A stretch of DNA of 60,486 nt from a virus, in the IMG/VR virus record IMGVR_UViG_3300012154_000001, positions 1 through 60,486 of that record. One strand, given 5' to 3'. Shown piece by piece: positions 6,012-36,726 of the stretch. Made by a program: the position numbers and the translations under genes. Below the pieces are notes generated by a model. That model ran no database searches, was not told where the DNA came from, and worked only from the letters and a program-made list of their open reading frames with translations. Positions within the stretch are counted from its first letter, which is position 1. Every line of letters starts with the position of its first letter.

Positions 6012-6293
6012 ATGGACACGAATACAATACAGCTAATGTGCACTATTGTTTGCTGCTGTCTTGCTGCTGCTTCCTTTTGGCGAAGCGGTAATACAGACAG
6101 TGCGAGAGAAAATGAACGCTGGGGAGCGTTCAATAAAGAAATGGAGTATGTGCGCAAGGATTTGGACGAGATCAAGAATCTGGTCGGGCAAAATTCCAGA
6201 GATACAAAAGATTCTATCAGGCGCGTGCATGACCGTCTGGACGAACACTTAAGAAAAGAACACAATCAGACCGTGCCTAAACGCTCTGGTTAA
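6012..6293 (+). CDS. Membrane-anchored coiled-coil protein
   Basis: 93 aa with an N-terminal Cys-rich TM helix followed by a charged helix. Lysis-proximal. Confidence 0.45.
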   Translation: MDTNTIQLMCTIVCCCLAAASFWRSGNTDSARENERWGAFNKEMEYVRKDLDEIKNLVGQNSRDTKDSIRRVHDRLDEHLRKEHNQTVPKRSG

Positions 6294-7894: not shown

Positions 7895-8515
7895 TTACGC
7901 CTCTCCTTTCAATCCTTCCAGTTTAAATTTTGCATTTTCAAGCGCTTCTTTGGTGATACATGAAGGGATATAGCCCTCGCCGCCCTCATTTATCACATTG
8001 TTATAATTCTTGCGCCAAGCTGCATATTCCGCATTGGTCGGCAGCCATTTTTGCCCTTCTGCTTTTTCGATAAACTTGACCAGTTCTGCTTTTTCGGTTT
8101 CGAGCTTCTTCGCTTTTCGCTCTACGATATCCGTAAAGCTATTTTCAAAATCACTCATTGTCTGCGCGATACTATTGTAGATGTCTTCTGGCATTGTTAT
8201 TATGCAAAACTGGCCATCGCTTCTGTGGCCTGCAACATAGTATCTTTCCCCGTTGGCGGTAACGTCTTCATCGGTCATAGTTATATATCCCGTTGCCGCG
8301 TCGCGCAGAACATTCCCACCGCAGTCTATTTCAAATAACCGGGAGCCATTAGCAGAGACCCTGGCGGTGAAAACGATTTTTGATTCGTGGGAAATGGTTC
8401 CACCCCAGCCATCGTCAATCACTTCATCGTAGGCAGCGCGGTATTCACATCCGAGAATATACTCGATCTTGCTCCCCCTTTTGGTTGTCCATGTAAATGT
8501 TTTGTCCTTTTTCAT
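7895..8515 (-). CDS. Hypothetical protein
   Basis: Start at MKKDKTF (AAGGAG SD). 206 aa with a C-terminal coiled coil. Confidence 0.5.
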   Translation of the reverse strand: MKKDKTFTWTTKRGSKIEYILGCEYRAAYDEVIDDGWGGTISHESKIVFTARVSANGSRLFEIDCGGNVLRDAATGYITMTDEDVTANGERYYVAGHRSDGQFCIITMPEDIYNSIAQTMSDFENSFTDIVERKAKKLETEKAELVKFIEKAEGQKWLPTNAEYAAWRKNYNNVINEGGEGYIPSCITKEALENAKFKLEGLKGEA

Positions 8516-8538
8516 TTTTTCTTTCTCCTTTATATTTT

Positions 8539-8844
8539 TTAACACCATGACAATCTGTATTTTTTTATGTCCGTTACCCTGCTGATGTCGATGCAAGTCT
8601 CCTTGCATTCGCCGCCAACTATTTCGCACCAGTACAATTCATCTTCTTCCAGTTCAGCGGTGCCATACATGTAGCTGGTGTAGTCCTGCCAGCCCATGGA
8701 TGATATTCTACTTAGCAGCCAATCAAGCGGATATTCAATATCGTCGAAGTATTCATAATTTTCGGGAAGAACAACGAAGCATTTTTCTCCTTGCAGGCTT
8801 GTTGTTTCGTTTCTATCATATACCCTCAATACCGTTCTTTTCAT
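8539..8844 (-). CDS. Hypothetical protein
   Basis: 101 aa with GGAGGG SD. First gene downstream of the 8877-8906 promoter. Confidence 0.5.
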   Translation of the reverse strand: MKRTVLRVYDRNETTSLQGEKCFVVLPENYEYFDDIEYPLDWLLSRISSMGWQDYTSYMYGTAELEEDELYWCEIVGGECKETCIDISRVTDIKKYRLSWC

Positions 8845-8876
8845 CGCTGTTCCCTCCGTTCTTTATCTTATACCTT

Positions 8877-8906
8877 ATTATACCATCGATGCCGATGGTT
8901 TGTCAA
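8877..8906 (-). promoter_or_regulatory. Sigma-70-type promoter (TTGACA, 18 nt spacer, TGGTATAAT) with a palindromic spacer
   Basis: Minus-strand read: TTGACA-AACCATCGGCATCGATGG-TATAAT. The spacer carries inverted CCATCG/CGATGG arms. Confidence 0.6.
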
Positions 8907-8924: not shown

Positions 8925-9686
8925 TCAAACTTTTTCACATCTGCCCTTGGTTATTTTGTCAAAGCGCTCCGGGTAAGCCTCTTTATACCATTCGAGAAAA
9001 GGCCCGTGCAGTTTTTCTTCCCCTGCTTCCCTCGCTGCCTTTGCCTCATCAAACGTGCCGAATGTTCCGAGGGAATACCACTTTCCTTTGAATCCAATTC
9101 CCGCACGATACTTCCCGGTCTTTTTATTCAGATACACGCCTCTTGCTCCGGTCGTGTTATTTTTGAACATTTTCTTTGACATGATTCTTGTCGCATTCGT
9201 ATTATTCTCTAAGCCAAATGTCTCGACCGCCCTCATCGATGCCTTTTCGTTTTTTAAACATCCACAACTAAGCACGCGTCCTTTTTCCAAGCCCTGCCGT
9301 GCAATGGCCTTAGTTTTGCCACAGTCACATCTGCATTCCCACTTGTCTCGATATCCCCGCTCCCCCGTGGATGCCTTTTTTAGCACCGTCAGCCTGCCGA
9401 AACGTCTCCCTGTCAGGTCTTGATTGTGTACGACTTTTTTCTCGCCAGCTTTGTGTAATGCTTCTTTATGCAAGCAACCGCATGAGCGTGTATCTCCAAT
9501 CAGCAGACTTCTTTCCCTGACGTTTATGGGTGGTTTTCCACATTCACATTCACATTGCCACATTCTTTTATAGTCTTTCGTTTTTTCATTCACCATCCCA
9601 ATCACAGTCAATCTTCCGAATTTTTTGCCTGTCAAATCATTTTTGCAGTTTTGGGGGTGCCTGATAATTTCATTCTTCACTTTCAT
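8925..9686 (-). CDS. AP2-domain DNA-binding protein with duplicated Cys-rich modules
   Basis: Two repeats of FGRLTV...W.C.C.CG...SCGC. C-terminal AP2 signature: ARGVYLNKKTGKYRAGIGFKGKWYSLGTFGTFDEA. Confidence 0.75.
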   Translation of the reverse strand: MKVKNEIIRHPQNCKNDLTGKKFGRLTVIGMVNEKTKDYKRMWQCECECGKPPINVRERSLLIGDTRSCGCLHKEALHKAGEKKVVHNQDLTGRRFGRLTVLKKASTGERGYRDKWECRCDCGKTKAIARQGLEKGRVLSCGCLKNEKASMRAVETFGLENNTNATRIMSKKMFKNNTTGARGVYLNKKTGKYRAGIGFKGKWYSLGTFGTFDEAKAAREAGEEKLHGPFLEWYKEAYPERFDKITKGRCEKV

Positions 9687-10117
9687 CCCTCGCTGGAATA
9701 TATTACTGCGTCATCACTAATCATGACCTCACCGCCTACAACTTTTCCGGGCACCGAAAACGGGTATACGGAAAGATCAATAGTGCATTCGCCATCGTCC
9801 GTTATGTTATTCCCGGTTCTTCCGTCAACTGCATTCGCGCCGTCAAGAAGCATTTTTTGTTCCTCTGTCCGCAGGCTTCCCCATGTCAATCCTGCGTAAT
9901 TCTTTGCGACTTCTCGCAAAAGATTGTCCGTATCAAGAAAATCCTCCATGCGGCATCCCAGCACCAGCGCAAGTTTATACAGCTTTTCGCCTGACATTCC
10001 CTCGATACGTTTCTGGCCTTGTTCAATATTGCGGATCAGGGAATAGGATACCCCTGCCGCTTTTGCAAGTCCGGACTGGGAGTATCCGGCCCGGATTCTT
10101 AACTCTTGTAATTTCAT
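9683..10117 (-). CDS. XRE-family HTH transcriptional regulator
   Basis: Start at MKLQELR (GAGGTG SD). HTH segment is LRIRAGYSQSGLAKAAGVSYSLIRNIEQG. ATGA overlap with the AP2 gene. Confidence 0.8.
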   Translation of the reverse strand: MKLQELRIRAGYSQSGLAKAAGVSYSLIRNIEQGQKRIEGMSGEKLYKLALVLGCRMEDFLDTDNLLREVAKNYAGLTWGSLRTEEQKMLLDGANAVDGRTGNNITDDGECTIDLSVYPFSVPGKVVGGEVMISDDAVIYSSEG

Positions 10118-10118
10118 A

Positions 10119-10301
10119 TTACACCTCAACCGTTCCGTGAGTGTAATTATTAGTTACACGATCATGATTTGTAGCGAAATACTTATAACCGATTACGCTG
10201 GCACTGTAAGACGTGATTTCGATGTCTTTCATGTTCCTCCCGGTTGCTTTCTTAACAATTCTTTTCATTTCGGTAATTTCTTTTGCTGTTGGTGTTCTCA
10301 T
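10119..10301 (-). CDS. Hypothetical small protein
   Basis: 60 aa with AAAGGAGAA SD. First gene downstream of the 10351-10379 promoter. Confidence 0.45.
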   Translation of the reverse strand: MRTPTAKEITEMKRIVKKATGRNMKDIEITSYSASVIGYKYFATNHDRVTNNYTHGTVEV

Positions 10302-23455: not shown

Positions 23456-25378
23456 ATGAATATAAAACTGAAAGAAATACGTATTGAAAACTTCAAAGGC
23501 ATCAGGGAACTGACCGTGAATTTTCAGGACAGGACATATATTTTCGGTCAAAACGCCACGGGTAAAACGACCATCATGGACGGTTTTATGTGGCTGTTAT
23601 TCGGCAAAGACAGTCTGGGTAGGGCAGATTTTAGTATCCGGCCAAACGACACGGACGGCAAAGTCATCAATAATGTTGTTATCAAGGTTACAGCCGCCTT
23701 GGATATTGATGGATGGGAACTTATCCTAACCAAGACCCAAGAACAAAATTGGGTAAAGAAGCGCGGGAGTGATGTGACAGAGCTTCAGGGCAATATTAAC
23801 AGCTATGAAGTCAACGAAATTCCCAAATCCGAGAAGGATTACAAGGCGTACATAAGCGAGTTGATTAATGAGGAGCTTTTCAAGCTAATAACCAGTCCAC
23901 GGGCGTTCACCTCCTTGAAATGGAAAGATCAACGAGATATTCTGCTGAAACTGGTTTCGAATGTGACCGATCTGGATGTGGCTGAAACCGACGAAAAGTT
24001 TGCCGCGCTGGCGCCGATGTTAAAAGATGCGTCCGTAGATGACTTGACCGCCAAAACAAAAAAGGCGCTGAAAGAACTGAACAAGAAACAGGCAGAACTG
24101 CCGGCACGAATCGACGAAGCCAACAAGGGCCTGGTGGATGCCGACTTTGCGGCATGCGAAGCCCAAAAAACAGATTTGGAAAGCCAGATCAAGGAGTTGG
24201 AGAGTCAGGAGGCTGACGCGTCTAAGGTCGGCGAGGCCATGGAAAACCTACAGCGGGACATTGTCCGCAAGCAGTCCGAAATAGGGGAACTCCAGCGGCG
24301 GGAAAATGAAACGTTGATCAATCAGCGCCGGGAAATCCAAAAGCGGATAGACGGCGCAGAGGCGGTATTTACGCGGGCTTTTAGATTTCAAACCGAGATC
24401 GAGAACGATATACAGCACAAGAGCGAACTCATTGAGGGATACAGGACGCTTAAGGAGTCATTGCTCAAAAAGTACAAAGAAACAGCGGCTATTGACATGG
24501 ACATCAATGATTGTAACTGTCCCATGTGCGGCCAAGTCCTTCCTGCCGATCAGCAAGAAGAAAAGGTTGCGGAATTCCGCGAAAGCAAACAGAAATCTAT
24601 CGACGATACTGTGAGTACTGGCAAGAAGGTTGCTGCCGACATCCTCACACTGGAATCGGACATCAAAGAGTTACAAGGGCAGCTGGAAGAATGCAAGGCT
24701 GACAAGATCAAACAGAATGCCCTGAAAACGGCAGCCATGAAAGAGCTTGGAGCCTTGCCGCAGGAGGTGGATTTGACCACGAATGGCGAGTATCTGGTCT
24801 TGTGGGAAGAGGTTATGCAGCTACAGGCGAGAGCCAAGGACATGGAAAGCGGTTCGGGCTATCTTGATCAGATCAGACGGCAAAAAGCTGGCTTAGTGGC
24901 AGAACTGGATAGCGTCAAGACCATTCTTGCCGGAAAAGACAATAATCAGCGGGTTAAGGATCGCATTGCAGAGCTACAACAAGAACAGCGATCTGTAGCG
25001 CAGAAAATTGCCAATCAGGAAAAGGGATTGTTTCTTTTGGAGGAATTCACAAGGGCCAAAATGGATATGTTATCATCCCGGATCAATGAAAAATTCAAGC
25101 TGGTTAACTTCCGGTTGTTTGAAGATCAGCTGAATGGCGGGTGCAAGGAAACCTGTGAGTGCACGATTTACGGTGTGCCTTTTGAATCTTTGAGTTTTGC
25201 ATTTAAAACAGTCGCCGGACTGGACATTATAATCGCCTTGCAAGACATTTATGGCACGACTGCCCCGATCTTTGTTGACAACGCGGAGTCTATTAATGGC
25301 TTTAATATCCCGGATGTGGCTGGTCAGTTAATTTTATTAATAGTGTCCGAAGACGAAAAATTGAAAGTTGAGGTATAG
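23456..25378 (+). CDS. SbcC/Rad50-like AAA ATPase with zinc hook
   Basis: Walker A GQNATGKTT. Long coiled coils with a central CPMCGQ hook. C-terminal IFVDNAES (Walker B / D-loop). Confidence 0.8.
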   Translation: MNIKLKEIRIENFKGIRELTVNFQDRTYIFGQNATGKTTIMDGFMWLLFGKDSLGRADFSIRPNDTDGKVINNVVIKVTAALDIDGWELILTKTQEQNWVKKRGSDVTELQGNINSYEVNEIPKSEKDYKAYISELINEELFKLITSPRAFTSLKWKDQRDILLKLVSNVTDLDVAETDEKFAALAPMLKDASVDDLTAKTKKALKELNKKQAELPARIDEANKGLVDADFAACEAQKTDLESQIKELESQEADASKVGEAMENLQRDIVRKQSEIGELQRRENETLINQRREIQKRIDGAEAVFTRAFRFQTEIENDIQHKSELIEGYRTLKESLLKKYKETAAIDMDINDCNCPMCGQVLPADQQEEKVAEFRESKQKSIDDTVSTGKKVAADILTLESDIKELQGQLEECKADKIKQNALKTAAMKELGALPQEVDLTTNGEYLVLWEEVMQLQARAKDMESGSGYLDQIRRQKAGLVAELDSVKTILAGKDNNQRVKDRIAELQQEQRSVAQKIANQEKGLFLLEEFTRAKMDMLSSRINEKFKLVNFRLFEDQLNGGCKETCECTIYGVPFESLSFAFKTVAGLDIIIALQDIYGTTAPIFVDNAESINGFNIPDVAGQLILLIVSEDEKLKVEV

Positions 25379-27925: not shown

Positions 27926-28203
27926 CCAGCCGAAAAATGGAAGCAATCAAAAAGGCAGAGTCAAAGCAAAAGCATGCCTTAATCGAGGCAGAGAACAGGT
28001 CTTTTATGGCCTGGCGCAAAACGCGACTCTTTCAAGTGTGTAGATTGTTGCGGCTCTTGGATCAGTTGATTCCGTTGTATCCTCCTTTTTCGGACGAACA
28101 ATGTGTAGCTGTTGAAATGATGATTCAAAATGAACAAAAATACCAAGTCCTTGCAAGCGGGACAAGGGAGGAGCAGGAGGAAATGAGACGACAGGATGAA
28201 TGA
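27922..28203 (+). CDS. Hypothetical protein
   Basis: TTG 27922 or ATG 27937 as start. Overlaps both neighbours. Confidence 0.4.
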   Translation: MTSRKMEAIKKAESKQKHALIEAENRSFMAWRKTRLFQVCRLLRLLDQLIPLYPPFSDEQCVAVEMMIQNEQKYQVLASGTREEQEEMRRQDE

Positions 28204-30031
28204 GCCGTGGAAAGAATTTACAAAAGACGAATTTAATACGGAAGCGCCCTATGCCCTCTTATTCAGCCACAAGGACGATGGTTTTGCCCACATGCAGTTA
28301 TTTAATACGTTATCGGCCAATGCCGAACGGGTGGGATTTAAACGCTTTAGCATGATGGTTAAGGCTTACTTTGCCCAGCATGAGGACCGTAAAGGGGGAA
28401 TAAGTAGCGTTGTCAACAACCTGACCAACTTTCGGGATCAGTCAATTGAGCTTTTTACCGGCGATTGGATGGCCGACGATCATGGCATTGTCCGGCGAAA
28501 CGATAACCAAGGCATGGACGTGGCCTGTATCCATCCGATCCTGCCGGTGCAGCGGCTGGTCAATATCGACGATGGAACCGTGCGCTTGAAACTGATGTTT
28601 CGCCGGGATTTCAGGGATTGGAAAGAAGTAGTGGCCGACAAGAGTATGTTATTCAGTGCAAGGGAGATAAAAAAATTGGCTGACAGGGATGTGTCGGTTT
28701 CCGACAAGAACGCATCATATTTGGTGGAATACCTCCAGGATATTGACGATCTGAACCACAACACAATTCCCGAGGTGCAGTCAGTAAGTCACCTTGGGTG
28801 GACATCCAACGGGATGTTTAGCCCTTACATGAAAAACTTGGAATTTGATGGGCTGGACAATTTCCGCAGTATTTTTCAGGCCGTTCGAACGCATGGAACG
28901 TTTGAGGAATGGCTTGAGATCGCGAGAGAAGTGCGAAAGACTAACACACCGGCCCGGATTGCTCTGGCTTCGAGTTTTGCGTCGGTGATTCTTAAGACGA
29001 TTGGAAAACTGAATTTTATGGTCCATTTCTGGGGTGGATCGGGAACCGGTAAAACAGTTGCCCAGCTGCTTGCCGTATCCGTGTGGGCAGACCCCGGCGA
29101 CGGCGCGGGCTATATGCAGACGTTCAATGGGACCCTTGTGGGGCTGGAACAACAGGCGAGTTTTGTCAACAACCTACCGCTGGTCCTGGATGAATTCCAG
29201 CTGGTAAAAGACAAGAAATCTTTTGAGCAAGCCGTCTATATGCTGTGCGAGGGAGTGGGCAAGACAAGGGGAGCTAAGACCGGTGGACTGCAAAAGACAC
29301 CTGTATGGAAGAATTGTATTATCACGTCCGGAGAAAGCCCGATCACCCATGCGGCATCCGGTGCCGGAGCTATGAACCGAATTATAGAGATTGAATGCCG
29401 GGATAACCTGTTTGCGGACGCACCGACGCTATTGGATGGTATCCGGCACAATTACGGACATGCCGGAAAGCTGTTTATGGGCTTCATGACCGCAGAGGCG
29501 GCGAGAGAAAAGGCGGTAGGACTGTACAAGAGCTATTATCAGGCTCTTGGTACGGCCAGCACGGAAAAACAGACCATGGCGGCGGCTGCCATCCTTACAG
29601 CGGACGCTCTGGCCACGGAATGGCTGTTTTGCGACGGTAGAGGGCTCACAGTAGAGGATATTGAAAAATACCTGCACAGCAAGGATAACGTGGACGCTGG
29701 GCTTCGAGGGTACGAGTACATACAAGAGTACTACGTGAGCAACTCAGCCAAATTTGAGGCTGATTTTGATCCCTGTTTCGGTACTGTCATGGGTGACGAA
29801 TTGCGGTTCATCAAGCGCAATTTTGAGCAAGTATGCGAAGAGGGCGGGTATAATCCCAAAGCGCTTCTGTCATGGCTTGATCAGGCGGGCAGATTAGACA
29901 AGGGAAAAGACAGTCTGTATAAGTCGACTAAGATTAACGGGACTGCTACTCGCTGCGCTTGTATTAACATGGCGGAGTCCCTACAAATAGAGTTTGATCC
30001 GGTCGGAAACACGGATTTGCCGTTTAAATAG
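28196..30031 (+). CDS. Replicative primase/helicase-like protein (DUF927 / SF3-type NTPase)
   Basis: 611 aa. Walker A FWGGSGTGKT and Walker B LVLDEF. The iteron array lies immediately downstream. Confidence 0.65.
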   Translation: MNEPWKEFTKDEFNTEAPYALLFSHKDDGFAHMQLFNTLSANAERVGFKRFSMMVKAYFAQHEDRKGGISSVVNNLTNFRDQSIELFTGDWMADDHGIVRRNDNQGMDVACIHPILPVQRLVNIDDGTVRLKLMFRRDFRDWKEVVADKSMLFSAREIKKLADRDVSVSDKNASYLVEYLQDIDDLNHNTIPEVQSVSHLGWTSNGMFSPYMKNLEFDGLDNFRSIFQAVRTHGTFEEWLEIAREVRKTNTPARIALASSFASVILKTIGKLNFMVHFWGGSGTGKTVAQLLAVSVWADPGDGAGYMQTFNGTLVGLEQQASFVNNLPLVLDEFQLVKDKKSFEQAVYMLCEGVGKTRGAKTGGLQKTPVWKNCIITSGESPITHAASGAGAMNRIIEIECRDNLFADAPTLLDGIRHNYGHAGKLFMGFMTAEAAREKAVGLYKSYYQALGTASTEKQTMAAAAILTADALATEWLFCDGRGLTVEDIEKYLHSKDNVDAGLRGYEYIQEYYVSNSAKFEADFDPCFGTVMGDELRFIKRNFEQVCEEGGYNPKALLSWLDQAGRLDKGKDSLYKSTKINGTATRCACINMAESLQIEFDPVGNTDLPFK

Positions 30032-30333
30032 GCATCCGTTACAGGAAAAACGCAAAAAGTTACGGGATTTTTAGCAGTTCTGTAACCGAAGAATGTAGCA
30101 TTTATGCGGGTTTGAGGGGCATGGTTACAGGGTTACAGAAGTTACAGACTTTTTATAAGCTTATAGGGAGGCACACTGAGAGAGAAAAAAAACAGGTTTT
30201 ACACATACCCCGCGCACGTGAGGAAAAAACGTTGTAACCCTGTAACCCTGTAACCGCACCCTCTAAAGCCAGTAAAATCAAGGGTTTTACGGTTACAGAC
30301 AGTTGTAACCCTTTGTAACGGAAAGGAGGCAGC
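30032..30333. repeat. Iteron array, probable replication origin
   Basis: GTTACAG at 30038, 30124, 30132, 30141 and 30292. CTGTAAC at 30080, 30240 and 30248. TTGTAAC at 30232, 30303 and 30313. GTTACGG at 30059. A-rich spacer around 30150-30230. Confidence 0.7.
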
Positions 30334-30579
30334 ATGACGGATAAAGAGGCTCAAAACAGTTTCAATGATGTCTGGTTGAATTTATGGAACAAGTACAAAG
30401 ACCTTTCGTCAAAAGATGATTACGCTAAAATATGGGAAGCACTCCACGAGGAATCTACCAACATGAAAAAGAAGTATCCACTGATGGAAGAAGCGATCAG
30501 TCGGATGACATCCGAAATTATTGAGCGGGCCAGAGGTCGGGGAAGGATTTCCGGCGATTACCACCGGCCGCCGACTTAG
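30334..30579 (+). CDS. Hypothetical protein
   Basis: 81 aa with an AAAGGAGG SD. Confidence 0.5.
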   Translation: MTDKEAQNSFNDVWLNLWNKYKDLSSKDDYAKIWEALHEESTNMKKKYPLMEEAISRMTSEIIERARGRGRISGDYHRPPT

Positions 30580-30604
30580 ATAATTATTTACAGGAGGATA
30601 AATA

Positions 30605-31072
30605 ATGGGACATCCGGAGCAAAGAGTACTAGACCTTGTGCCGCAGATGACAGAGCTTTTTAAACAAGGCGAAGATATATATACCATAGCCCGTCATCTG
30701 GGCGTAAGGTACGAGACAGTGGCGCGCTACCTGGAAAGATGTGAATTAATCGCAGAACAGCGCAAGAATAGCCGGAGACAACGGGAGGAGCGGATGGAGA
30801 ACGAAGCCATAACCAAAGCTGACATAGCGAGGTTACGCTCCTGCATCCGCATAGGTGACACGGTTCCGGTGGTGATGGAAGTGGCCGACCGCGAGAGCGC
30901 CAACCTCGCACCAATTGAGGTTCGCAAAGATATGTATGTCACGAAGATTTTAGACGGCGGCAGGGGTGTTTTGGTTAGCGAGGACATGGGTGAACGGTCC
31001 GTGAGGATGGTAACGTATGTGGATATTTTACAAGAATTAGAGGGGGTAAGACGTGAAAAACATATTATTTAG
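30605..31072 (+). CDS. Hypothetical HTH-containing protein
   Basis: IYTIARHLGVRYETVARYLERC looks like an HTH segment. Confidence 0.45.
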   Translation: MGHPEQRVLDLVPQMTELFKQGEDIYTIARHLGVRYETVARYLERCELIAEQRKNSRRQREERMENEAITKADIARLRSCIRIGDTVPVVMEVADRESANLAPIEVRKDMYVTKILDGGRGVLVSEDMGERSVRMVTYVDILQELEGVRREKHII

Positions 31073-31670
31073 GGCGAAGCGAAAAGATACGGGCGAAATG
31101 GTGCAGGGTTCCGTGGTTAAATACGGGCCGGGTGAAGGGAAATACTATATTGTTCCTTCATACGCGTCTGCCCTGTATGGGTTTGAGGTGGAACCGGAAA
31201 CTATACGCCATTTCAACGAATCACATGATAGGGGATGGATACCAGTTGGGGAGCGGCTGCCGGAAAATGAAAAAGAGGTTGAGGTTAGCATCGAACGCCG
31301 CCTGGAGAATGGCACGCGGAGACTTACGTGTAGAGCCATTTACGAAGACGGGACTATCTGGTCGGAAAGCAGCCGTTTCAACTGGAACGACTTTGACGGC
31401 CTTGACAGTGATCTTGAGTACAGCAAGGAGCTTGACGACTGGAAGGTACCGCAAGGATGGTTTGAGGCTGCTACTTACGCGGAGGAATTTGCGGCTATAG
31501 GTGATTTTGTTGTAGCATGGCGGCCACTGCCGGAACCGTATGTGGTAGAAAACAACCAGCAAAAGAAATGCCCGTTTTTGGGATTTGACGGGCATGCGAT
31601 ATGTTTTAGCGAAGGTGAATGCCTACAGGAATATTTGGCTGGCTGCCCGGTATATGTTCCGACCGATTGA
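31053..31670 (+). CDS. YopX-like N-terminal domain + DUF551-like C-terminal domain protein
   Basis: Motifs ILFRAKRKDTGEMVQG and WIPVGERLPENEKEV. Confidence 0.55.
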   Translation: MKNILFRAKRKDTGEMVQGSVVKYGPGEGKYYIVPSYASALYGFEVEPETIRHFNESHDRGWIPVGERLPENEKEVEVSIERRLENGTRRLTCRAIYEDGTIWSESSRFNWNDFDGLDSDLEYSKELDDWKVPQGWFEAATYAEEFAAIGDFVVAWRPLPEPYVVENNQQKKCPFLGFDGHAICFSEGECLQEYLAGCPVYVPTD

Positions 31671-31690
31671 TCAGAAAAGGAGGTACAAAA

Positions 31691-31909
31691 ATGAGACAAT
31701 ATTGCCGGTACTGTTCCTTCTGTGTCACCGGGAACGGTATCTATTGCAGCGAAAAGAAAAAGACAATGAGCGAGGCAAGCGCAAAGTCAGTTAATCACTG
31801 TAAGTCATTCGATCTCAATCCGATGGACGCATTTGATCTGGACAAGGTGTATAAGCCGCGGGAAGTGAAGCAGCGGCAGTGCGACGGACAAATTGAAATG
31901 TTCGGGTGA
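31691..31909 (+). CDS. Cys-rich small protein (CxxCxxC N-terminus)
   Basis: Internal ATG after AAAGGAGGT. Begins MRQYCRYCSFC. Confidence 0.45.
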   Translation: MRQYCRYCSFCVTGNGIYCSEKKKTMSEASAKSVNHCKSFDLNPMDAFDLDKVYKPREVKQRQCDGQIEMFG

Positions 31910-31936
31910 ATTAATTTTTGGCGGAGGAAAACTATA

Positions 31937-32092
31937 ATGTCTAAAGCATGCGAAAACTGCGGTGAATGTCAATGTCTGTCCTGCCTACTAAGAGATAGCA
32001 ATATATATAATGAGGCACTTGCTTGCAATAGATGTAGCTACTGTGAGGATAATCCGGTGCATGGTTGTACAGATTTTGTTTATGAAAATTAA
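31937..32092 (+). CDS. Cys-rich micro-protein (51 aa, 9 Cys)
   Basis: Not in the ORF track. GGAGG lies 9 nt upstream. MSKACENCGECQCLSCLLRDSNIYNEALACNRCSYCEDNPVHGCTDFVYEN. Confidence 0.4.
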   Translation: MSKACENCGECQCLSCLLRDSNIYNEALACNRCSYCEDNPVHGCTDFVYEN

Positions 32093-32122
32093 AGTTAGAT
32101 TGATCAGAAAGGCGGTGAGGAT

Positions 32123-33049
32123 ATCAAGATAGGATTGATAGACGTGGACGGCCATAATTTTCCTAATTTGCCCTTAATGAAGCTATCAGCATGGCATAAG
32201 CAGCAAGGGGACAGGGTTGAGTGGTACGATCCGATGTTTTCTAATCATTGTGACCGGGTGTATATGAGCAAGGTGTTTTCTTTCTCACCGGACTATGACG
32301 ATTGTATTGATGCCAATGAGGTCATCCGGTGTGGTAGTGGTTATTGTATTGACCTGGTTGACGGCAAAGAGGTTTACCGGTCAGACCGTGATACTTCGCT
32401 GCCGGAAGAGATTGAACACATCTATCCGGATTACAGCATATACCCGGACTTGACCAAGGACACGGCGTTCGGATTCCTAACCCGCGGATGCCCAAGGGGG
32501 TGCAGCTTCTGCCACGTTGCCGCCAAAGAGGGCCGGTGCAGTATCAAGGTTGCTGATCTACGGGCGTTCTGGGACGGACAGGGGCATGTAACACTATGCG
32601 ACCCTAACATATTAGCTTGTCGGGATAGGGACGACCTATTAAGGCAGCTGGTGGAGTCAAGGGCGATTATAGATTTCACCCAAGGCATTGATGTCAGACT
32701 TGCAACACCGGAGCGCATAGAAATGCTTAACCGGATGCGAATCAAGAGGATACATATGGCTTGGGACCATCCCGATCAGGACTTGACAGAGGATTTCAAA
32801 CGGTTTTCGGAGTGTTACAACCGGAAGTCGGAAAGCGGCAAAGTGGTCTACGTGCTGACAAATTATAACAGCACGATAGAGCAAGACCTGCACCGGATAT
32901 ATACCTTGCGTGATCTCAAATATGATCCCTACGTGATGTTATACGACAAGGAGCATGCTGATCAGCAGCACAGGGACCTACAGCGATGGGTTAACAATCG
33001 AATCATCTGGCGAAAGTGCCGGAGATTTGAGGATTATGAAAAAGTATAA
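32123..33049 (+). CDS. Radical SAM enzyme with N-terminal B12-binding-like domain; start probably ATC 32123 (ORF-track TTG 32135)
   Basis: CPRGCSFC is a CxxxCxxC cluster. In-frame IKIGLIDVDGHNF lies upstream of the TTG. GGCGG SD is 7 nt before the ATC. Confidence 0.75.
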   Translation: MKIGLIDVDGHNFPNLPLMKLSAWHKQQGDRVEWYDPMFSNHCDRVYMSKVFSFSPDYDDCIDANEVIRCGSGYCIDLVDGKEVYRSDRDTSLPEEIEHIYPDYSIYPDLTKDTAFGFLTRGCPRGCSFCHVAAKEGRCSIKVADLRAFWDGQGHVTLCDPNILACRDRDDLLRQLVESRAIIDFTQGIDVRLATPERIEMLNRMRIKRIHMAWDHPDQDLTEDFKRFSECYNRKSESGKVVYVLTNYNSTIEQDLHRIYTLRDLKYDPYVMLYDKEHADQQHRDLQRWVNNRIIWRKCRRFEDYEKV

Positions 33050-33080
33050 GTACAAAACAGAGAGGCGGTGAGAATCAAGC

Positions 33081-33854
33081 ATGGCAAAGACAAACATAAT
33101 AGTGCCAGAGGGGCTACATAGCGACTATACAAGTATAATTGTAAGTTACTCAAACGGTATTGATAGTGCCGGGGCGCTATATTGGGCATTGCAGAATTTT
33201 GACAGAAAAAAGATATTTCTGTTATATTGTGACACCGGATTTGAGTACCCGGAGAACATCCAAATGTTTTACCGGACAGCGGCTTTCATGCGGGTTAAGC
33301 CTGTTTTGCTGGAACATCCAAAAGGATTCTTGGGATTGCTGTTAGAAGAACGGCTCATGTGGCCGGACATGAAAAACCGGTGGTGTACAGCATATTTAAA
33401 AACCGGTATCACCGATAAGTGGATTCGGGCAAATAGGCATATCCTTGGTAAAAAATGTCTATTCGTTTCAGGAGAGCGCCGGGACGAAAGCAAAAGCCGG
33501 GCGAAGCTGCCGGAGATTGAGTATCACAGCACAACGCTGAAAACAAAACGGGTAGCAGATTTTACCTGCCACTGGTACCGCCCTTGCTTGGATTATGAAA
33601 AAGGAAAGATGTTTGAGCAGGGAAGAGAGTTAAAGCTTGAACCACATTTTTGCTATGAATATCTTGGTAGATGCAGTTGCATGGGATGTATGTTCATGTC
33701 AGATGTCCATGCTATTGAAAATATAAAAAGATATCCCGAGCAAATGAAGAAGTTTGTGGATGCAGAAATAAAGTTATCCCACACATGGAAATCCAAAAAA
33801 GGATTGAAAGAAATATGGGACCAGTGCCACGATATTGACGATGTAGACAAATAA
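33081..33854 (+). CDS. PAPS-reductase/DndC-like PP-loop ATPase
   Basis: SYSNGIDS (PP-loop variant), RWCT..LK, GERRDESKSR and a C-terminal CSCMGC cluster. Confidence 0.8.
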   Translation: MAKTNIIVPEGLHSDYTSIIVSYSNGIDSAGALYWALQNFDRKKIFLLYCDTGFEYPENIQMFYRTAAFMRVKPVLLEHPKGFLGLLLEERLMWPDMKNRWCTAYLKTGITDKWIRANRHILGKKCLFVSGERRDESKSRAKLPEIEYHSTTLKTKRVADFTCHWYRPCLDYEKGKMFEQGRELKLEPHFCYEYLGRCSCMGCMFMSDVHAIENIKRYPEQMKKFVDAEIKLSHTWKSKKGLKEIWDQCHDIDDVDK

Positions 33855-33916
33855 AGAAAAGGGGAAAAGGGGTTTGCTGGCCAGCATGAAAGAACGTTCT
33901 TTACTCCTGACGAAAA

Positions 33917-34531
33917 ATGAATAATGCGATATATACAGTACATACCGGGAACAACGCCGGTTTGCTATCCCAGGTGGTTGATCTCTATTTCAAGGCCGGG
34001 GATACAGTGGCAGACGTCACATACGGCAAAGGGGCATTTTGGAGGGAAGTTGACCAGGGCAAATATACAATTGTTGGGACTGACATAAAAACAGGAACCG
34101 ATTTCCGGTGTCTGCCTTACGAAAATGAGCTATTTGATCACGGGGTTTTAGACCCGCCATATGCCAGGACCGAGCTGGGGGACATGGTTAAATGTTATAA
34201 CACATCGAAGAGTAGCAGCCACGCCGGGATAATGGATTTGTACAGAGGCGGCTTGAAAGAGCTTTACAGGGTTATCAAGCCGGGCGGCTACATCCTTGTC
34301 AAATGTCAAGACGAAGTGTACGGAGGTAAGCAGCATTGGAGCCACATCGAGATCAAGGACATGGCGGAAGACTTGGGATTATACGCAAAAGACATGTTCG
34401 TTCTCGTAAATACCAAAACGCCGAAAGTGCATCACAATCAAAAGCATGCACGGAAAAACCATAGCTATTTGTGGGTGTTTGAAAAAACCAAAGCGAAGCA
34501 GTCAGAAGGTGAAAAAAATGTACTCACATGA
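33917..34531 (+). CDS. DNA methyltransferase (N6A/N4C type)
   Basis: SAM motif DVTYGKG followed by the catalytic DPPY motif; 204 aa. Confidence 0.75.
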   Translation: MNNAIYTVHTGNNAGLLSQVVDLYFKAGDTVADVTYGKGAFWREVDQGKYTIVGTDIKTGTDFRCLPYENELFDHGVLDPPYARTELGDMVKCYNTSKSSSHAGIMDLYRGGLKELYRVIKPGGYILVKCQDEVYGGKQHWSHIEIKDMAEDLGLYAKDMFVLVNTKTPKVHHNQKHARKNHSYLWVFEKTKAKQSEGEKNVLT

Positions 34532-34727
34532 AATACAAGCACTGCTCGATCGCAACAGCCACACCATTAGCTCTGATATGTACCGCGACATCGTGATCAG
34601 TTCCCGCCAGATCGATCACGTGCGGTATGATCCTTATCAGGAGTTCTTCCAGGCGTGGACCAGCGACGGGTATAGTTGGGAATTCAGGGTGGTGCCGGCG
34701 GGGCAGCCATCGAAAGGAAAAAAATGA
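34518..34727 (+). CDS. Hypothetical small protein
   Basis: Internal ATG overlapping the end of the MTase gene; 69 aa. Confidence 0.4.
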   Translation: MYSHEIQALLDRNSHTISSDMYRDIVISSRQIDHVRYDPYQEFFQAWTSDGYSWEFRVVPAGQPSKGKK

Positions 34728-34747
34728 GCATAACAGGAGGGAATTTT

Positions 34748-35062
34748 ATGGATAACAGAATTATAAAAATAGCAGAGGAATACGGACACAAGCCACAACT
34801 GCAAATGTTGATTGAAGAAATGGCAGAATTGACACAAGCAATCTGTAAATTTATCAGAGTAGACGACAGGGCGAAACGTGAGCCGGTGCAGGCGGCTGAA
34901 TGTACGGAAGTTATCGAAAACATTATTGAAGAAATGGCAGACGTGCAAATAATGATATTGCAGCTACAACATTTTACAAACTTGTCAGATGAAAGCTTTA
35001 AAGAGCAGATGAATAAGAAACTTGACAGGCAGATAGAGCGCATAAATTTAAAAAAAGGATAG
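34748..35062 (+). CDS. MazG-like nucleotide pyrophosphohydrolase
   Basis: AGGAGGG SD. EEMAEL...EEMADV paired EExxE/D helices in a 104-aa all-helical protein. Confidence 0.55.
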   Translation: MDNRIIKIAEEYGHKPQLQMLIEEMAELTQAICKFIRVDDRAKREPVQAAECTEVIENIIEEMADVQIMILQLQHFTNLSDESFKEQMNKKLDRQIERINLKKG

Positions 35063-35135
35063 ACCGCTTACTCAAAATGAACTTGAAAAGATGTTTGAAG
35101 CAAAGGGAATGTAAATTAGTTTCAGGAGGAGTAAA

Positions 35136-35324
35136 ATGCAAAGGTTAACAGCAACTATTATCAGAAAATATCAGAAAAGAAAAGAAGGAATTGCAACTAT
35201 TGGAGAATTCAAGGAGCTGGGAAGAGAGTTGAGAGATCAATTTGGGTTGTCTGATCGTGACGCTATTGATTTGTTGAATAACAACAATATTGTAGACATC
35301 ATGAGTCGGCATGAAGCAGATTAA
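35136..35324 (+). CDS. Hypothetical protein
   Basis: 62 aa with an AGGAGGAG SD. Confidence 0.45.
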   Translation: MQRLTATIIRKYQKRKEGIATIGEFKELGRELRDQFGLSDRDAIDLLNNNNIVDIMSRHEAD

Positions 35325-35344
35325 ATTTTAAAGGAGGTATTGGT

Positions 35345-35617
35345 ATGGAGTGGAAAGAGATAAATCCGCAGCAAAATAACTGGAAGAAGCAATGGGATTT
35401 GACAGCATATTATGGCGAACATGTAATAGGCAGCATTGTTTTGGACAATGATAATTGGGGCGTGTTTTACTCGGTAATAGACGGAGATGTTGAATTTATA
35501 CCCACGTCAGACTTGGAGGAAGCGAAAGGGATATTTTACGAAAGCCTTGATTGTTTCTTTGAGGGTGAAATCAATTATTATAACGAGCTGAGGAAAATGC
35601 TTGGTGAAATAAATTAA
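35345..35617 (+). CDS. Hypothetical protein
   Basis: 90 aa with an AAGGAGGT SD. Confidence 0.5.
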   Translation: MEWKEINPQQNNWKKQWDLTAYYGEHVIGSIVLDNDNWGVFYSVIDGDVEFIPTSDLEEAKGIFYESLDCFFEGEINYYNELRKMLGEIN

Positions 35618-35637
35618 GCTTAACGGAGGTGAAAACA

Positions 35638-35838
35638 ATGGACAGGTACACAGCGATAGATAAGGAATATATAACCTATCGTGAAGCCAAGGACAAAGGC
35701 TGGAATGAATACGCCTGCCGCGAAGAAGAATTGAAGCGGCGGTTAAAGCTTTACGAGGATACCGGGCTGGAGCCGGAAGAGGTGGCGCGGCAGGTGGAAG
35801 CGCTTAAACTGATAACGGGCATTGTGAAAAAGATATGA
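35638..35838 (+). CDS. Hypothetical protein
   Basis: ATG 35638 lies 8 nt after GGAGG. Confidence 0.45.
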   Translation: MDRYTAIDKEYITYREAKDKGWNEYACREEELKRRLKLYEDTGLEPEEVARQVEALKLITGIVKKI

Positions 35839-35856
35839 TTAATGGAGGTGGAAAAG

Positions 35857-36366
35857 ATGGATTTAGCCAAATTGCATGATGATGCACTTGATTATGAAAA
35901 CGATATTGAAATGGACGTTGAAATGTTGTGTGAAGTACGCATGAGAATGTACAGCAAGAGGGATTGCAGGATACTGGAAGAAATACTGCCGGCGCTTAAT
36001 GCCCTTGTGCGTGACATTGATGCATACAGGACTTGGGTTATGGAGCAGCAGGACAAATTGAAATTAGAGGCAGAGAAGGTGGAGCGGCGGGATGATATTG
36101 CCCTCCTGTCGGATGATCATTGTGAATGTGGCATGGCAATTGATGATGGGTGGAAGTGCTGCCCAGGTTGCGGCAGACGGTTGGTATGTTCCAATAGAGA
36201 AAGCGGGTTGCTCGTAAAATTCAATGACGGCCGCAAGATGATTATGTCAGAAGATGCTTACAAATGGTTTTCGGATACCCGAGAAAGGGATTATACAATA
36301 GAGCATTGGTTTAAGTTGAATGATGCCATTGAAAAAAATCCCGGTGTGGAAATTTTGGTGATGTAG
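35857..36366 (+). CDS. Hypothetical zinc-ribbon protein
   Basis: ATG 35857 lies 8 nt after GGAGG. Contains CECG...CCPGCG. Confidence 0.5.
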   Translation: MDLAKLHDDALDYENDIEMDVEMLCEVRMRMYSKRDCRILEEILPALNALVRDIDAYRTWVMEQQDKLKLEAEKVERRDDIALLSDDHCECGMAIDDGWKCCPGCGRRLVCSNRESGLLVKFNDGRKMIMSEDAYKWFSDTRERDYTIEHWFKLNDAIEKNPGVEILVM

Positions 36367-36390
36367 ATTAATTTTAGGAGGTGAAACAAT

Positions 36391-36726
36391 ATGAATGTCA
36401 CGAAAGCTAATGAATATTTAAAAAAATGCATGGATAATTGCTCAGATAAACTTTCTGATCCTTCATTTTTCGCAGGAAATAAACTTCAAAGCAATGCCCT
36501 TAGAGGCGAAGGGTTACGGGATATTAGTCCTCGGTGTGGGTGTAAAATGCCTGCGCAATGGAGCGATGGAGCAAAAAGACGCGGATGGGGGATGTGGATT
36601 TTTTCAGGCGGTACAGCCGAAGTGTTCGGACATTGCAGATATACTGATTGTCCACGTCGCAATGAGTTTTTAAGAACGGCACCCAGAAAAGAAATTCGGA
36701 AACTGGCGGATATTCAATGTGACTAA
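36391..36726 (+). CDS. Hypothetical protein
   Basis: 111 aa with an AGGAGGTGA SD. Confidence 0.45.
   Translation: MNVTKANEYLKKCMDNCSDKLSDPSFFAGNKLQSNALRGEGLRDISPRCGCKMPAQWSDGAKRRGWGMWIFSGGTAEVFGHCRYTDCPRRNEFLRTAPRKEIRKLADIQCD

Follow-up and report, generated by a model that had tools for sequence, protein, structure and literature searches.

Record IMGVR_UViG_3300012154_000001 of IMG/VR, 60,486 nucleotides (nt) long and analysed in full (hereafter the window), looks like an entire temperate phage genome, with an integrase, repressors, antirepressors, lysins and contractile-tail baseplate genes. The host of this contractile-tailed gut phage is probably a Lachnospiraceae bacterium; the nearest named homologues of its radical S-adenosylmethionine (SAM) enzyme come from that family (e.g. 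Murimonas and Enterocloster). The present analysis concerns a compact gene set at 31691-35062, read on the plus strand. It holds two small cysteine-rich genes, micro1 (31691..31909) and micro2 (31937..32092), the radical SAM enzyme (32135..33049), a PP-loop ATP pyrophosphatase resembling 3'-phosphoadenosine 5'-phosphosulfate (PAPS) reductases (33081..33854), an orphan DNA methyltransferase (33917..34531) and a MazG-like pyrophosphohydrolase (34748..35062). The initial annotation had read these six genes as one undescribed modification module led by the two micro-proteins. Comparison with related phages shows that every gene is its own mosaic block, and the region is probably a hypervariable hot spot whose accessory genes, of the anti-restriction and DNA-modification kind, stand alone and are exchanged independently of each other.

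The six open reading frames (ORFs) were confirmed on one strand with spacers of 20-62 nt. Every motif quoted earlier is legible in the translations: MRQYCRYCSFC in micro1, MSKACENCGECQCLSC (9 Cys) in micro2, CPRGCSFC in the radical SAM enzyme, SYSNGIDS, RWCT, RRDES and CSCMGC in the PP-loop enzyme, and DVTYGKG before DPPY in the methyltransferase. The four enzyme names agree with the profile matches. A seventh small gene (34518-34727), overlooked in the initial annotation, lies between the methyltransferase and MazG. The start of the radical SAM gene had been given as 32123 or 32135; the TTG at 32135 is the first canonical start codon, position 32123 is an ATC where homologues have ATG, and translation may begin at that ATC instead.

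The proposed placement between replication and late genes also holds. A replication and recombination module upstream comprises an SbcC-like ATPase, RecT, a metallo-beta-lactamase (MBL) hydrolase, SSB, an ERCC4 nuclease and a primase/helicase (28196-30031), and the small terminase, large terminase and portal genes follow from 40124 on. No promoter-like or terminator-like signal exceeded shuffled expectation in 30000-36500, so the genes could be co-transcribed. Cobalamin and SAM riboswitches were sought around the genes without result, and no Rfam element is present there. One sub-threshold Rfam match to CRISPR-DR25 inside the PP-loop gene (33788-33810, minus strand; 24.6 bits against a cut-off of 36, E 0.19) is a single copy and probably due to chance.

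Mosaic structure of the gene set

Relatives were sampled around anchor genes. The radical SAM set comprised 80 IMG/VR loci and three GenBank phages with a homologue at 53-98% identity; the PP-loop set, 22 loci with a homologue 71-88% identical; the micro1 set, 24 loci with a micro1 homologue; and the bacterial set, 80 species-representative genomes from GTDB. Controls were 25 loci anchored on the primase/helicase, none with a radical SAM gene. Neighbourhoods covered ±8-10 kb around each anchor, many loci are mutually related, and PP-loop genes near the anchors were detected by tblastn together with an iteratively built PP-loop hidden Markov model. Individual loci are designated by numbers prefixed with L.

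Alignment of the window with sister phages by blastn resolved distinct homology blocks bounded by gene ends, and the blocks of micro1, micro2, the radical SAM gene, the PP-loop gene, the methyltransferase and the 34518 gene each have a different set of relatives. The micro1 block (31678-31914) is common to all ten sister-clade loci compared, with 82-92% nt identity regardless of the gene downstream. The radical SAM block (32086-33050) is common to L004-L006, whose radical SAM genes are 95-98% identical to that of the window; their PP-loop protein is an unrelated one of 392-412 residues (L004, L005) or is missing (L006). The PP-loop block (33078-33844) is 77% nt identical in L085. The methyltransferase block (33846-34116) recurs at 94% nt identity in L117, where the gene comes after a different PP-loop type, and the block of the 34518 gene (34508-34705, with ends at 34504/34511 and 34698/34738) recurs at 87-96% in L004, L006, L142-L144, L147 and L152.

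The micro2 block (31910-32092) is 98.9% identical in L152, where it follows the 34518 gene and no radical SAM gene is present. It is also found at 94-96% nt identity in L085 and L087, behind a PP-loop gene; L085-L087 have no radical SAM gene. Conversely, L005 and L006 carry an unrelated, acidic, cysteine-free ORF of 51 residues in the micro2 slot, before a 96% identical radical SAM gene, and L004 has two inserted genes in place of micro2. In no relative was micro2, the window's methyltransferase or MazG found beside the radical SAM gene. Co-conservation among relatives, on which the initial annotation had itself staked the module, was thus sought and came out negative. Because each gene is a separate recombination block, the reading of the six genes as a single module is not supported, and their combination does not hold as a new pathway.

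The sister phages (micro1 at ≥77% identity) share a gene order of helix-turn-helix gene, DUF551 gene, micro1, a variable small ORF, an optional radical SAM gene, a PP-loop gene, one or more DNA methyltransferases and the 34518 gene. Six types of protein occupy the PP-loop slot (257, 261, 304, 322, 392 and 425 residues), and no long alignment between any two of them exceeds about 25% identity (L142 5496-6407; L144 3077-4042; L005 3962-5140; L151 3147-3929; L153 5628-6902; window 33081-33854). Their flanking genes are 82-96% identical, and all six types follow the same 20-nt leader. As judged from these alignments, PP-loop cassettes replace one another here in the manner typical of loci in an arms race. 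DNA methyltransferases of several classes make up what remains of the hot spot in sister phages.

Two disrupted genes were seen among these occupants. The PP-loop gene is split in L146 (2917-3869; 210 and 113 residues) and L147 (5397-6355; 185 and 136 residues), and these copies are probably pseudogenes. A C5-cytosine methyltransferase in L142 (6494-7897) is split into ORFs of 222 and 238 residues, the first with an HNH-like Cys/His insert; its orthologue in L143 is an intact protein of 331 residues.

A conserved leader and ribosome-binding segment, GATTGATCAGAAAGGCGGTGAGGA (32098..32121, plus strand), stands at the left junction of the resident cassette. In seven loci, one of which (L106) is a 3.6-kb contig with the window's own genes, the 20-nt leader GATCAGAAAGGCGGTGAGGA comes before the radical SAM gene, and in five before a PP-loop gene. 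It was seen in L004-L006, L106, L117, L142, L144-L148 and L150, and its 13-nt core is repeated before micro1. This 13-mer, GATTGATCAGAAA, has two exact copies in the window, the first at 31665..31677 (plus strand), 14 nt upstream of the micro1 start and directly before the micro1 block, which begins at 31678, and the second inside the leader segment before the radical SAM gene. By chance, 0.19 matches with at most one mismatch would be expected, and two of 100 shuffles reach two. The leader may mark a boundary of recombination or act as a signal for translation that the cassettes share.

In its overall plan the region resembles moron- or nin-like variable regions. It occupies the same genome position between replication and late genes, has shared gene-boundary breakpoints with a conserved junction sequence, and contains orphan methyltransferases, MazG and small genes without assigned function. 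It differs in its main occupants, which here are six unrelated PP-loop types and sometimes a phrog_9298 radical SAM gene.

Co-occurrence counts point to separate inheritance of the two enzymes as well. Of the 83 loci from IMG/VR and GenBank, 17 have a PP-loop gene no more than 8 kb from the radical SAM gene, as do 16 of the 80 GTDB species genomes, so that about 80% of radical SAM loci have none at that distance; the rate is that of the controls without a radical SAM gene (4/25; Fisher p 0.78). Among the PP-loop loci, 19/22 have no radical SAM gene nearby. It adjoins the PP-loop gene in L104 only (1/22), and in L088 and L089 a distant radical SAM gene lies 6 kb away. Among the sister phages, a PP-loop gene occurs in 3/4 radical-SAM-positive phages whose contig reaches past the gene and in 8/9 radical-SAM-negative ones, which indicates that the two genes come and go independently. 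No conserved neighbour of the radical SAM gene was found across the loci examined.

Several points weigh against independent exchange. The co-occurrence counts rest on flanks of ±8-10 kb around anchor genes rather than on whole genomes, and the controls are few (n=25) and from a single lineage. Of the 16 species genomes that have a PP-loop gene inside the 8-kb limit, 10 have it at most three genes from the radical SAM gene. The two genes adjoin in several lineages, in both orders and with differing PP-loop types (L001, L004/L005, L033/L034, L104, L165, L166, L174, L189, L217), and a PAPS-reductase gene is also present in four of about ten lineages of GenBank phages with the radical SAM gene. 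A facultative partnership between the two enzymes would yield the same adjacency pattern. DNA methyltransferases cluster in the same way, however, so co-residence in one accessory sub-region explains the adjacency without a joint pathway.

Such a partnership is the rival explanation that survives best. It holds that the radical SAM enzyme and the PP-loop enzyme cooperate facultatively, the micro-proteins taking part or not, in one pathway for an undescribed phage DNA modification such as a thio- or alkyl-base. Besides the recurrent adjacency, in the window and in several independent lineages, it can draw on the position of both genes among DNA methyltransferases, on the solved structures closest to the radical SAM core, those of sulfur-inserting methylthiotransferases, and on the resemblance of the PP-loop enzyme to iron-sulfur (Fe-S) thiolases and adenosine 5'-phosphosulfate (APS) reductase. 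We consider it unlikely in view of the counts above and the independent presence and absence of both genes in sister phages. Moreover, the defining marks of methylthiotransferases, three cysteines near the N-terminus and a TRAM domain, are missing from the radical SAM protein, and neither micro1 nor micro2 is co-inherited with it.

The PP-loop enzyme

The PP-loop protein (33081..33854, plus strand) matches the Pfam PAPS_reduct family (PF01507, 36.1 bits against a cut-off of 22.5) and phrog_424. The phrog_424 match begins at profile position 148/460, so the window protein lacks that family's N-terminal extension. The residues of the SxGxDS loop (S24, G26, D28, S29) are invariant in homologues. 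Conserved across the phage PP-loop types are the PP-loop itself, a CC(x3)K motif and a C-terminal GCxxC; the variant in the window has C102 and CSCMGC, still four cysteines, and a [4Fe-4S] site at C102, C198, C200 and C203 is probable from this pattern. In an AlphaFold2 (AF2) model (mean predicted local distance difference test score, pLDDT, 85.9), the nearest proteins are [4Fe-4S] APS reductase, CysH, CysD and the Fe-S tRNA thiolases TtuA and NcsA, the best folds being APS reductase 2goy, CysH 6vpu and TtuA. Sequence and profile searches of both the PP-loop and the radical SAM protein against the PDB gave weak matches only (E 0.002 or worse), so that neither can be assigned to a family in this way. 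Literature searches turned up no functional work in phages on the family of the radical SAM enzyme (phrog_9298) or on that of the PP-loop enzyme, and the role of phage PAPS reductases is described as unknown or unvalidated (PMC11437467, PMC12713726).

Among defence and modification systems, DndC, SspD and BrxP share with the window protein the PAPS_reduct PP-loop fold and a cysteine set fit for an Fe-S cluster. SspD is its best PADLOC match (E 4.9e-13, near full length); BrxP gives 1.2e-7 (PP-loop domain only) and DndC no better than 2e-7, and against the DndC model TIGR03183 the protein scores 24.7 bits, the cut-off being 290.4. It has no DUF4007 domain, and DndD/E, SspB/C and BrxC/Z/L partners were not found across the 60-kb phage. 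The protein is therefore no member of a DndABCDE, SspABCD or BREX type 4 system. Phosphorothioation is reported to require, besides the PAPS-reductase protein, a dedicated P-loop NTPase, and the same paper states that SspD or BrxP needs SspB (DUF4007) and SspC or BrxC (DUF6079 NTPase) as partners (PMC12914056). A 640-residue ABC-type ATPase (23456-25378), the only one in the window, was considered as DndD or SspC and rejected: it is closest to LmuB and SbcC and is part of the RecT module.

The QueC/QueE pathway of Dpd systems likewise pairs a PP-loop with a radical SAM enzyme in phages. Here, the PP-loop protein matches the QueC family phrog_1550 only at E 7e-4 over 38 residues, and the radical SAM protein has no QueE match. 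DpdA/TGT, QueD and FolE were not found in Pfam scans of the non-structural ORFs of at least about 100 residues, the gene set and its two upstream neighbours, and PHROG annotation of the replication and packaging genes revealed none of the three either. An IbrA/IbrB pair is not present either, with no ParBc match in Pfam scans of the window. The earlier statement that DpdA/TGT, QueD, FolE, DndA/D/E and ParB/IbrB partners are all absent is thus borne out across the whole window.

The structural relatives outside defence systems are the Fe-S PP-loop thiolases (TtuA, TtcA, NcsA, LarE) and APS reductase, with 2goy, 6vpu, 5mkq, 6scy and 8cnz as the best structures. A cysteine pattern like their CC...CxxC is kept across the phage PP-loop types. 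Sequence identity to the window protein is 14-19%, the zinc fingers of TtuA are absent here, and no sulfur-carrier partner is encoded.

The match to PAPS_reduct and the APS/PAPS reductase folds could also be taken to mean that the protein is a phage CysH, an auxiliary metabolic gene boosting assimilatory sulfate reduction in the host. The gene cysH is listed as an auxiliary metabolic gene in virome papers (PMC12713726, PMC12323421), in one of which the label carries the remark 'Not validated' (PMC12713726). This explanation is very improbable for the window protein. Against the NCBIfam models of CysH and APS reductase it reaches 14-18 bits, where 154-254 would be needed (TIGR02057, 15.1 vs 254.2; TIGR02055, 14 vs 235.3; NF002537, 18.4 vs 154), and the sequence has no ECGLH-type C-terminal motif. 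The gene also stands among DNA methyltransferases, in a hot spot where PP-loop types replace one another, which is the behaviour of an arms race and not of metabolism.

The radical SAM enzyme

The radical SAM protein (32135..33049, plus strand) belongs to phrog_9298 (E 8e-100). Its score against Pfam PF04055 (25.3 bits) lies under the cut-off of 29.5; the CPRGCSFC motif places it in the superfamily, with C119, C123 and C126 invariant in homologues down to 34% identity. Conserved cysteines besides the motif are C162 and the nearly invariant C71. An AF2 model (pLDDT 82.5) consists of an N-terminal alpha/beta domain, Rossmann-like and resembling B12-binding domains, followed by the radical SAM barrel. 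The match to TIGR04013 is weak (E 0.097), and AprD4, the best-matching B12-like enzyme, is not known to use cobalamin.

The best fold and profile matches are MtaB, RimO, MiaB and AprD4 (9a6d, 6fd2, 4jc0 and 7mjv in Foldseek and profile searches), all of them weak, with a template-modelling (TM) score below 0.5 and E 0.003 or worse. These enzymes share the architecture of an N-terminal Rossmann- or flavodoxin-like domain before the radical SAM core. The window protein differs from methylthiotransferases in having neither the N-terminal three-cysteine cluster (UPF0004) nor TRAM, and with about 300 residues it is some 150 residues shorter, ending about 170 residues past the motif. A Foldseek search of BFVD returned uncharacterised phage radical SAM proteins only. 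In keeping with the initial annotation, profile, PDB and fold searches place the protein in no characterised family, nucleic-acid-directed or otherwise.

The family is large, with 1496 clusters at 50% identity (E<=1e-10). Its hosts in the loci examined are almost all strict anaerobes, including Lachnospiraceae, Oscillospiraceae, Clostridium tetani, Bacteroides, Methanomassiliicoccales and Marinitoga, and the gene is located in early regions of prophages. DNA methyltransferase-like genes lie at most three genes away in 21/79 species genomes and within 8 kb in 35/79. A gene for a VirB4-like ATPase, typical of conjugative elements, is nearby in at least 8/79, and conjugative contexts were seen among L165-L244 (e.g. 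L194 1060-2898 and L222 5156-10796).

Some ORFs fuse radical SAM segments to TraG/TraD, TopA, YodL/LPD26, ERF or GH32 (among them the chimeric ORFs of proteins P0255, P0280, P0308 and P0317). Most hold partial radical SAM segments and were taken as chimeric or frameshifted calls, so they were used as genomic context and not as Rosetta-stone evidence. Two further observations concern the family. L007 carries two paralogues about 0.4 kb apart (8001-8903 and 9281-10279), and two copies are present in 2/80 species genomes (among L165-L244). In L113 (Bacteroides phage LoVEphage OY731433), a gene resembling 5S ribosomal RNA (rRNA) (6143-6253, minus strand; 76.4 bits against a cut-off of 38, E 4.8e-16), labelled 5S rRNA in the record also, sits between the PAPS-reductase and phrog_9298 radical SAM genes.

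A comparable gene module has been described in the Thermus phages Cumys and phiMa, where a radical SAM gene, with a proposed role in DNA modification, and a DUF483 gene belong to a conserved three-gene set (PMC11437467). The window radical SAM gene differs in having no conserved partner, and DUF483 was not detected by Pfam.

Least credible of all is the idea that the cysteine-rich micro-proteins are precursor peptides of the SCIFF or ranthipeptide kind matured by the radical SAM enzyme, which would suit the position of micro2 (9 Cys in 51 residues) directly upstream and its CGECQC stretch, presumably reminiscent of SCIFF peptides, but which conflicts with the want of a cysteine-rich C-terminal SPASM/twitch domain in the enzyme (its only conserved cysteines are C119, C123, C126, C162 and the nearly invariant C71), with micro2 standing without a radical SAM gene in L085-L087 and L152 and a cysteine-free acidic ORF taking its place in L005 and L006, and with the finding that no small cysteine-rich ORF recurs beside the radical SAM gene across 160 loci.

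Accessory genes and their proposed roles

The first small gene, micro1 (31691..31909, plus strand), encodes 72 residues with a four-cysteine signature (phrog_31107, E 8.8e-18). In the alignment of homologues, MRQYCRYC is invariant and the conserved cysteines are C5, C8, C20 and C38; the third cysteine of the N-terminal CxxCxxC is not conserved in the family. A PP-loop gene is enriched near micro1 (13/24 loci vs 4/25 controls, p 0.007). A partnership of the two was rejected, as close PP-loop homologues elsewhere have no micro1, distant micro1 homologues mostly have no PP-loop gene, and the PP-loop type switches while micro1 remains. Because the link breaks in relatives in these ways, we read micro1 as a conserved backbone gene that flanks the variable cassette region at its left border.

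The product of micro2 (31937..32092, plus strand) has no match in Pfam, PHROG, NCBIfam or PADLOC profile scans. Its sequence is 95.5% nt identical to L085 1201-1356 and L087 1895-2050; all six differing codons (6/6) are non-synonymous and 9/9 cysteines are retained. The differences could reflect diversifying selection or merely small numbers. They also raised doubt as to whether micro2 is coding, which was set aside since the nine cysteines and the reading frame are intact and the ORF occurs in four contexts. From its changing positions, micro2 is taken to be an independently mobile small cassette.

The methyltransferase (33917..34531, plus strand) is of the N6-adenine/N4-cytosine type, with motif I (DVTYGKG) before motif IV (DPPY, residues 79-82) and matches to PF01555 (50.6 bits vs a cut-off of 26.7) and phrog_24333 (E 1.2e-46). 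Its end is overlapped by 14 nt by the small conserved gene at 34518..34727 (plus strand), whose ORF opens at 34446 and which stands at the right border of the variable cassette region. MazG (34748..35062, plus strand) scores 20.1 bits against Pfam, under the cut-off of 22, and matches phrog_2245 (E 2.6e-25), annotated as nucleoside triphosphate pyrophosphohydrolase. The only homologues found are those of L001, L085 and L087 (43-46% identity), where the genes are ordered differently, and MazG is on this distribution best regarded as an independent accessory gene beyond the cassette region.

Read as a hot spot of separately exchanged genes, the region would hold neighbours that are co-transcribed yet independent, each cassette working alone. 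The methyltransferase, whose family is clear, would protect phage DNA from host restriction by methylation, and MazG would, by its family, hydrolyse (d)NTPs. Because of its fold, its PP-loop and its four-cysteine site, the stand-alone PP-loop protein would most likely adenylate a nucleic-acid or nucleotide substrate and then substitute the activated position, probably with sulfur. The radical SAM enzyme, also stand-alone, would use a 5'-deoxyadenosyl radical for its chemistry; its substrate is probably a nucleic acid, because its gene so often stands beside DNA methyltransferases in prophages and conjugative elements. By the same account, micro1 would be a backbone gene at the border of the hot spot and micro2 an unrelated small mobile gene.

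There is a modest chance that a chemically new DNA mark is written by the PP-loop enzyme, by the radical SAM enzyme of phrog_9298 or by both, without a Dnd, Ssp, BREX or Dpd partner. Such a mark might be, for example, a thiolated or radical-alkylated base or a backbone modification, placed on phage or conjugative-element DNA. If so, the rapid swapping of six PP-loop types would be the trace of an arms race, in gut anaerobes, against host defences that sense modification.

The phrog_9298 family, found in prophages and conjugative elements, is completely uncharacterised, and sister phages that differ only in the cassette offer natural controls. Gut viromes contain phage PAPS reductases in great numbers, and these are routinely classed as auxiliary genes of sulfur metabolism. 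Here they behave as swappable cassettes next to DNA methyltransferases; this speaks for a part in nucleic-acid modification or counter-defence.

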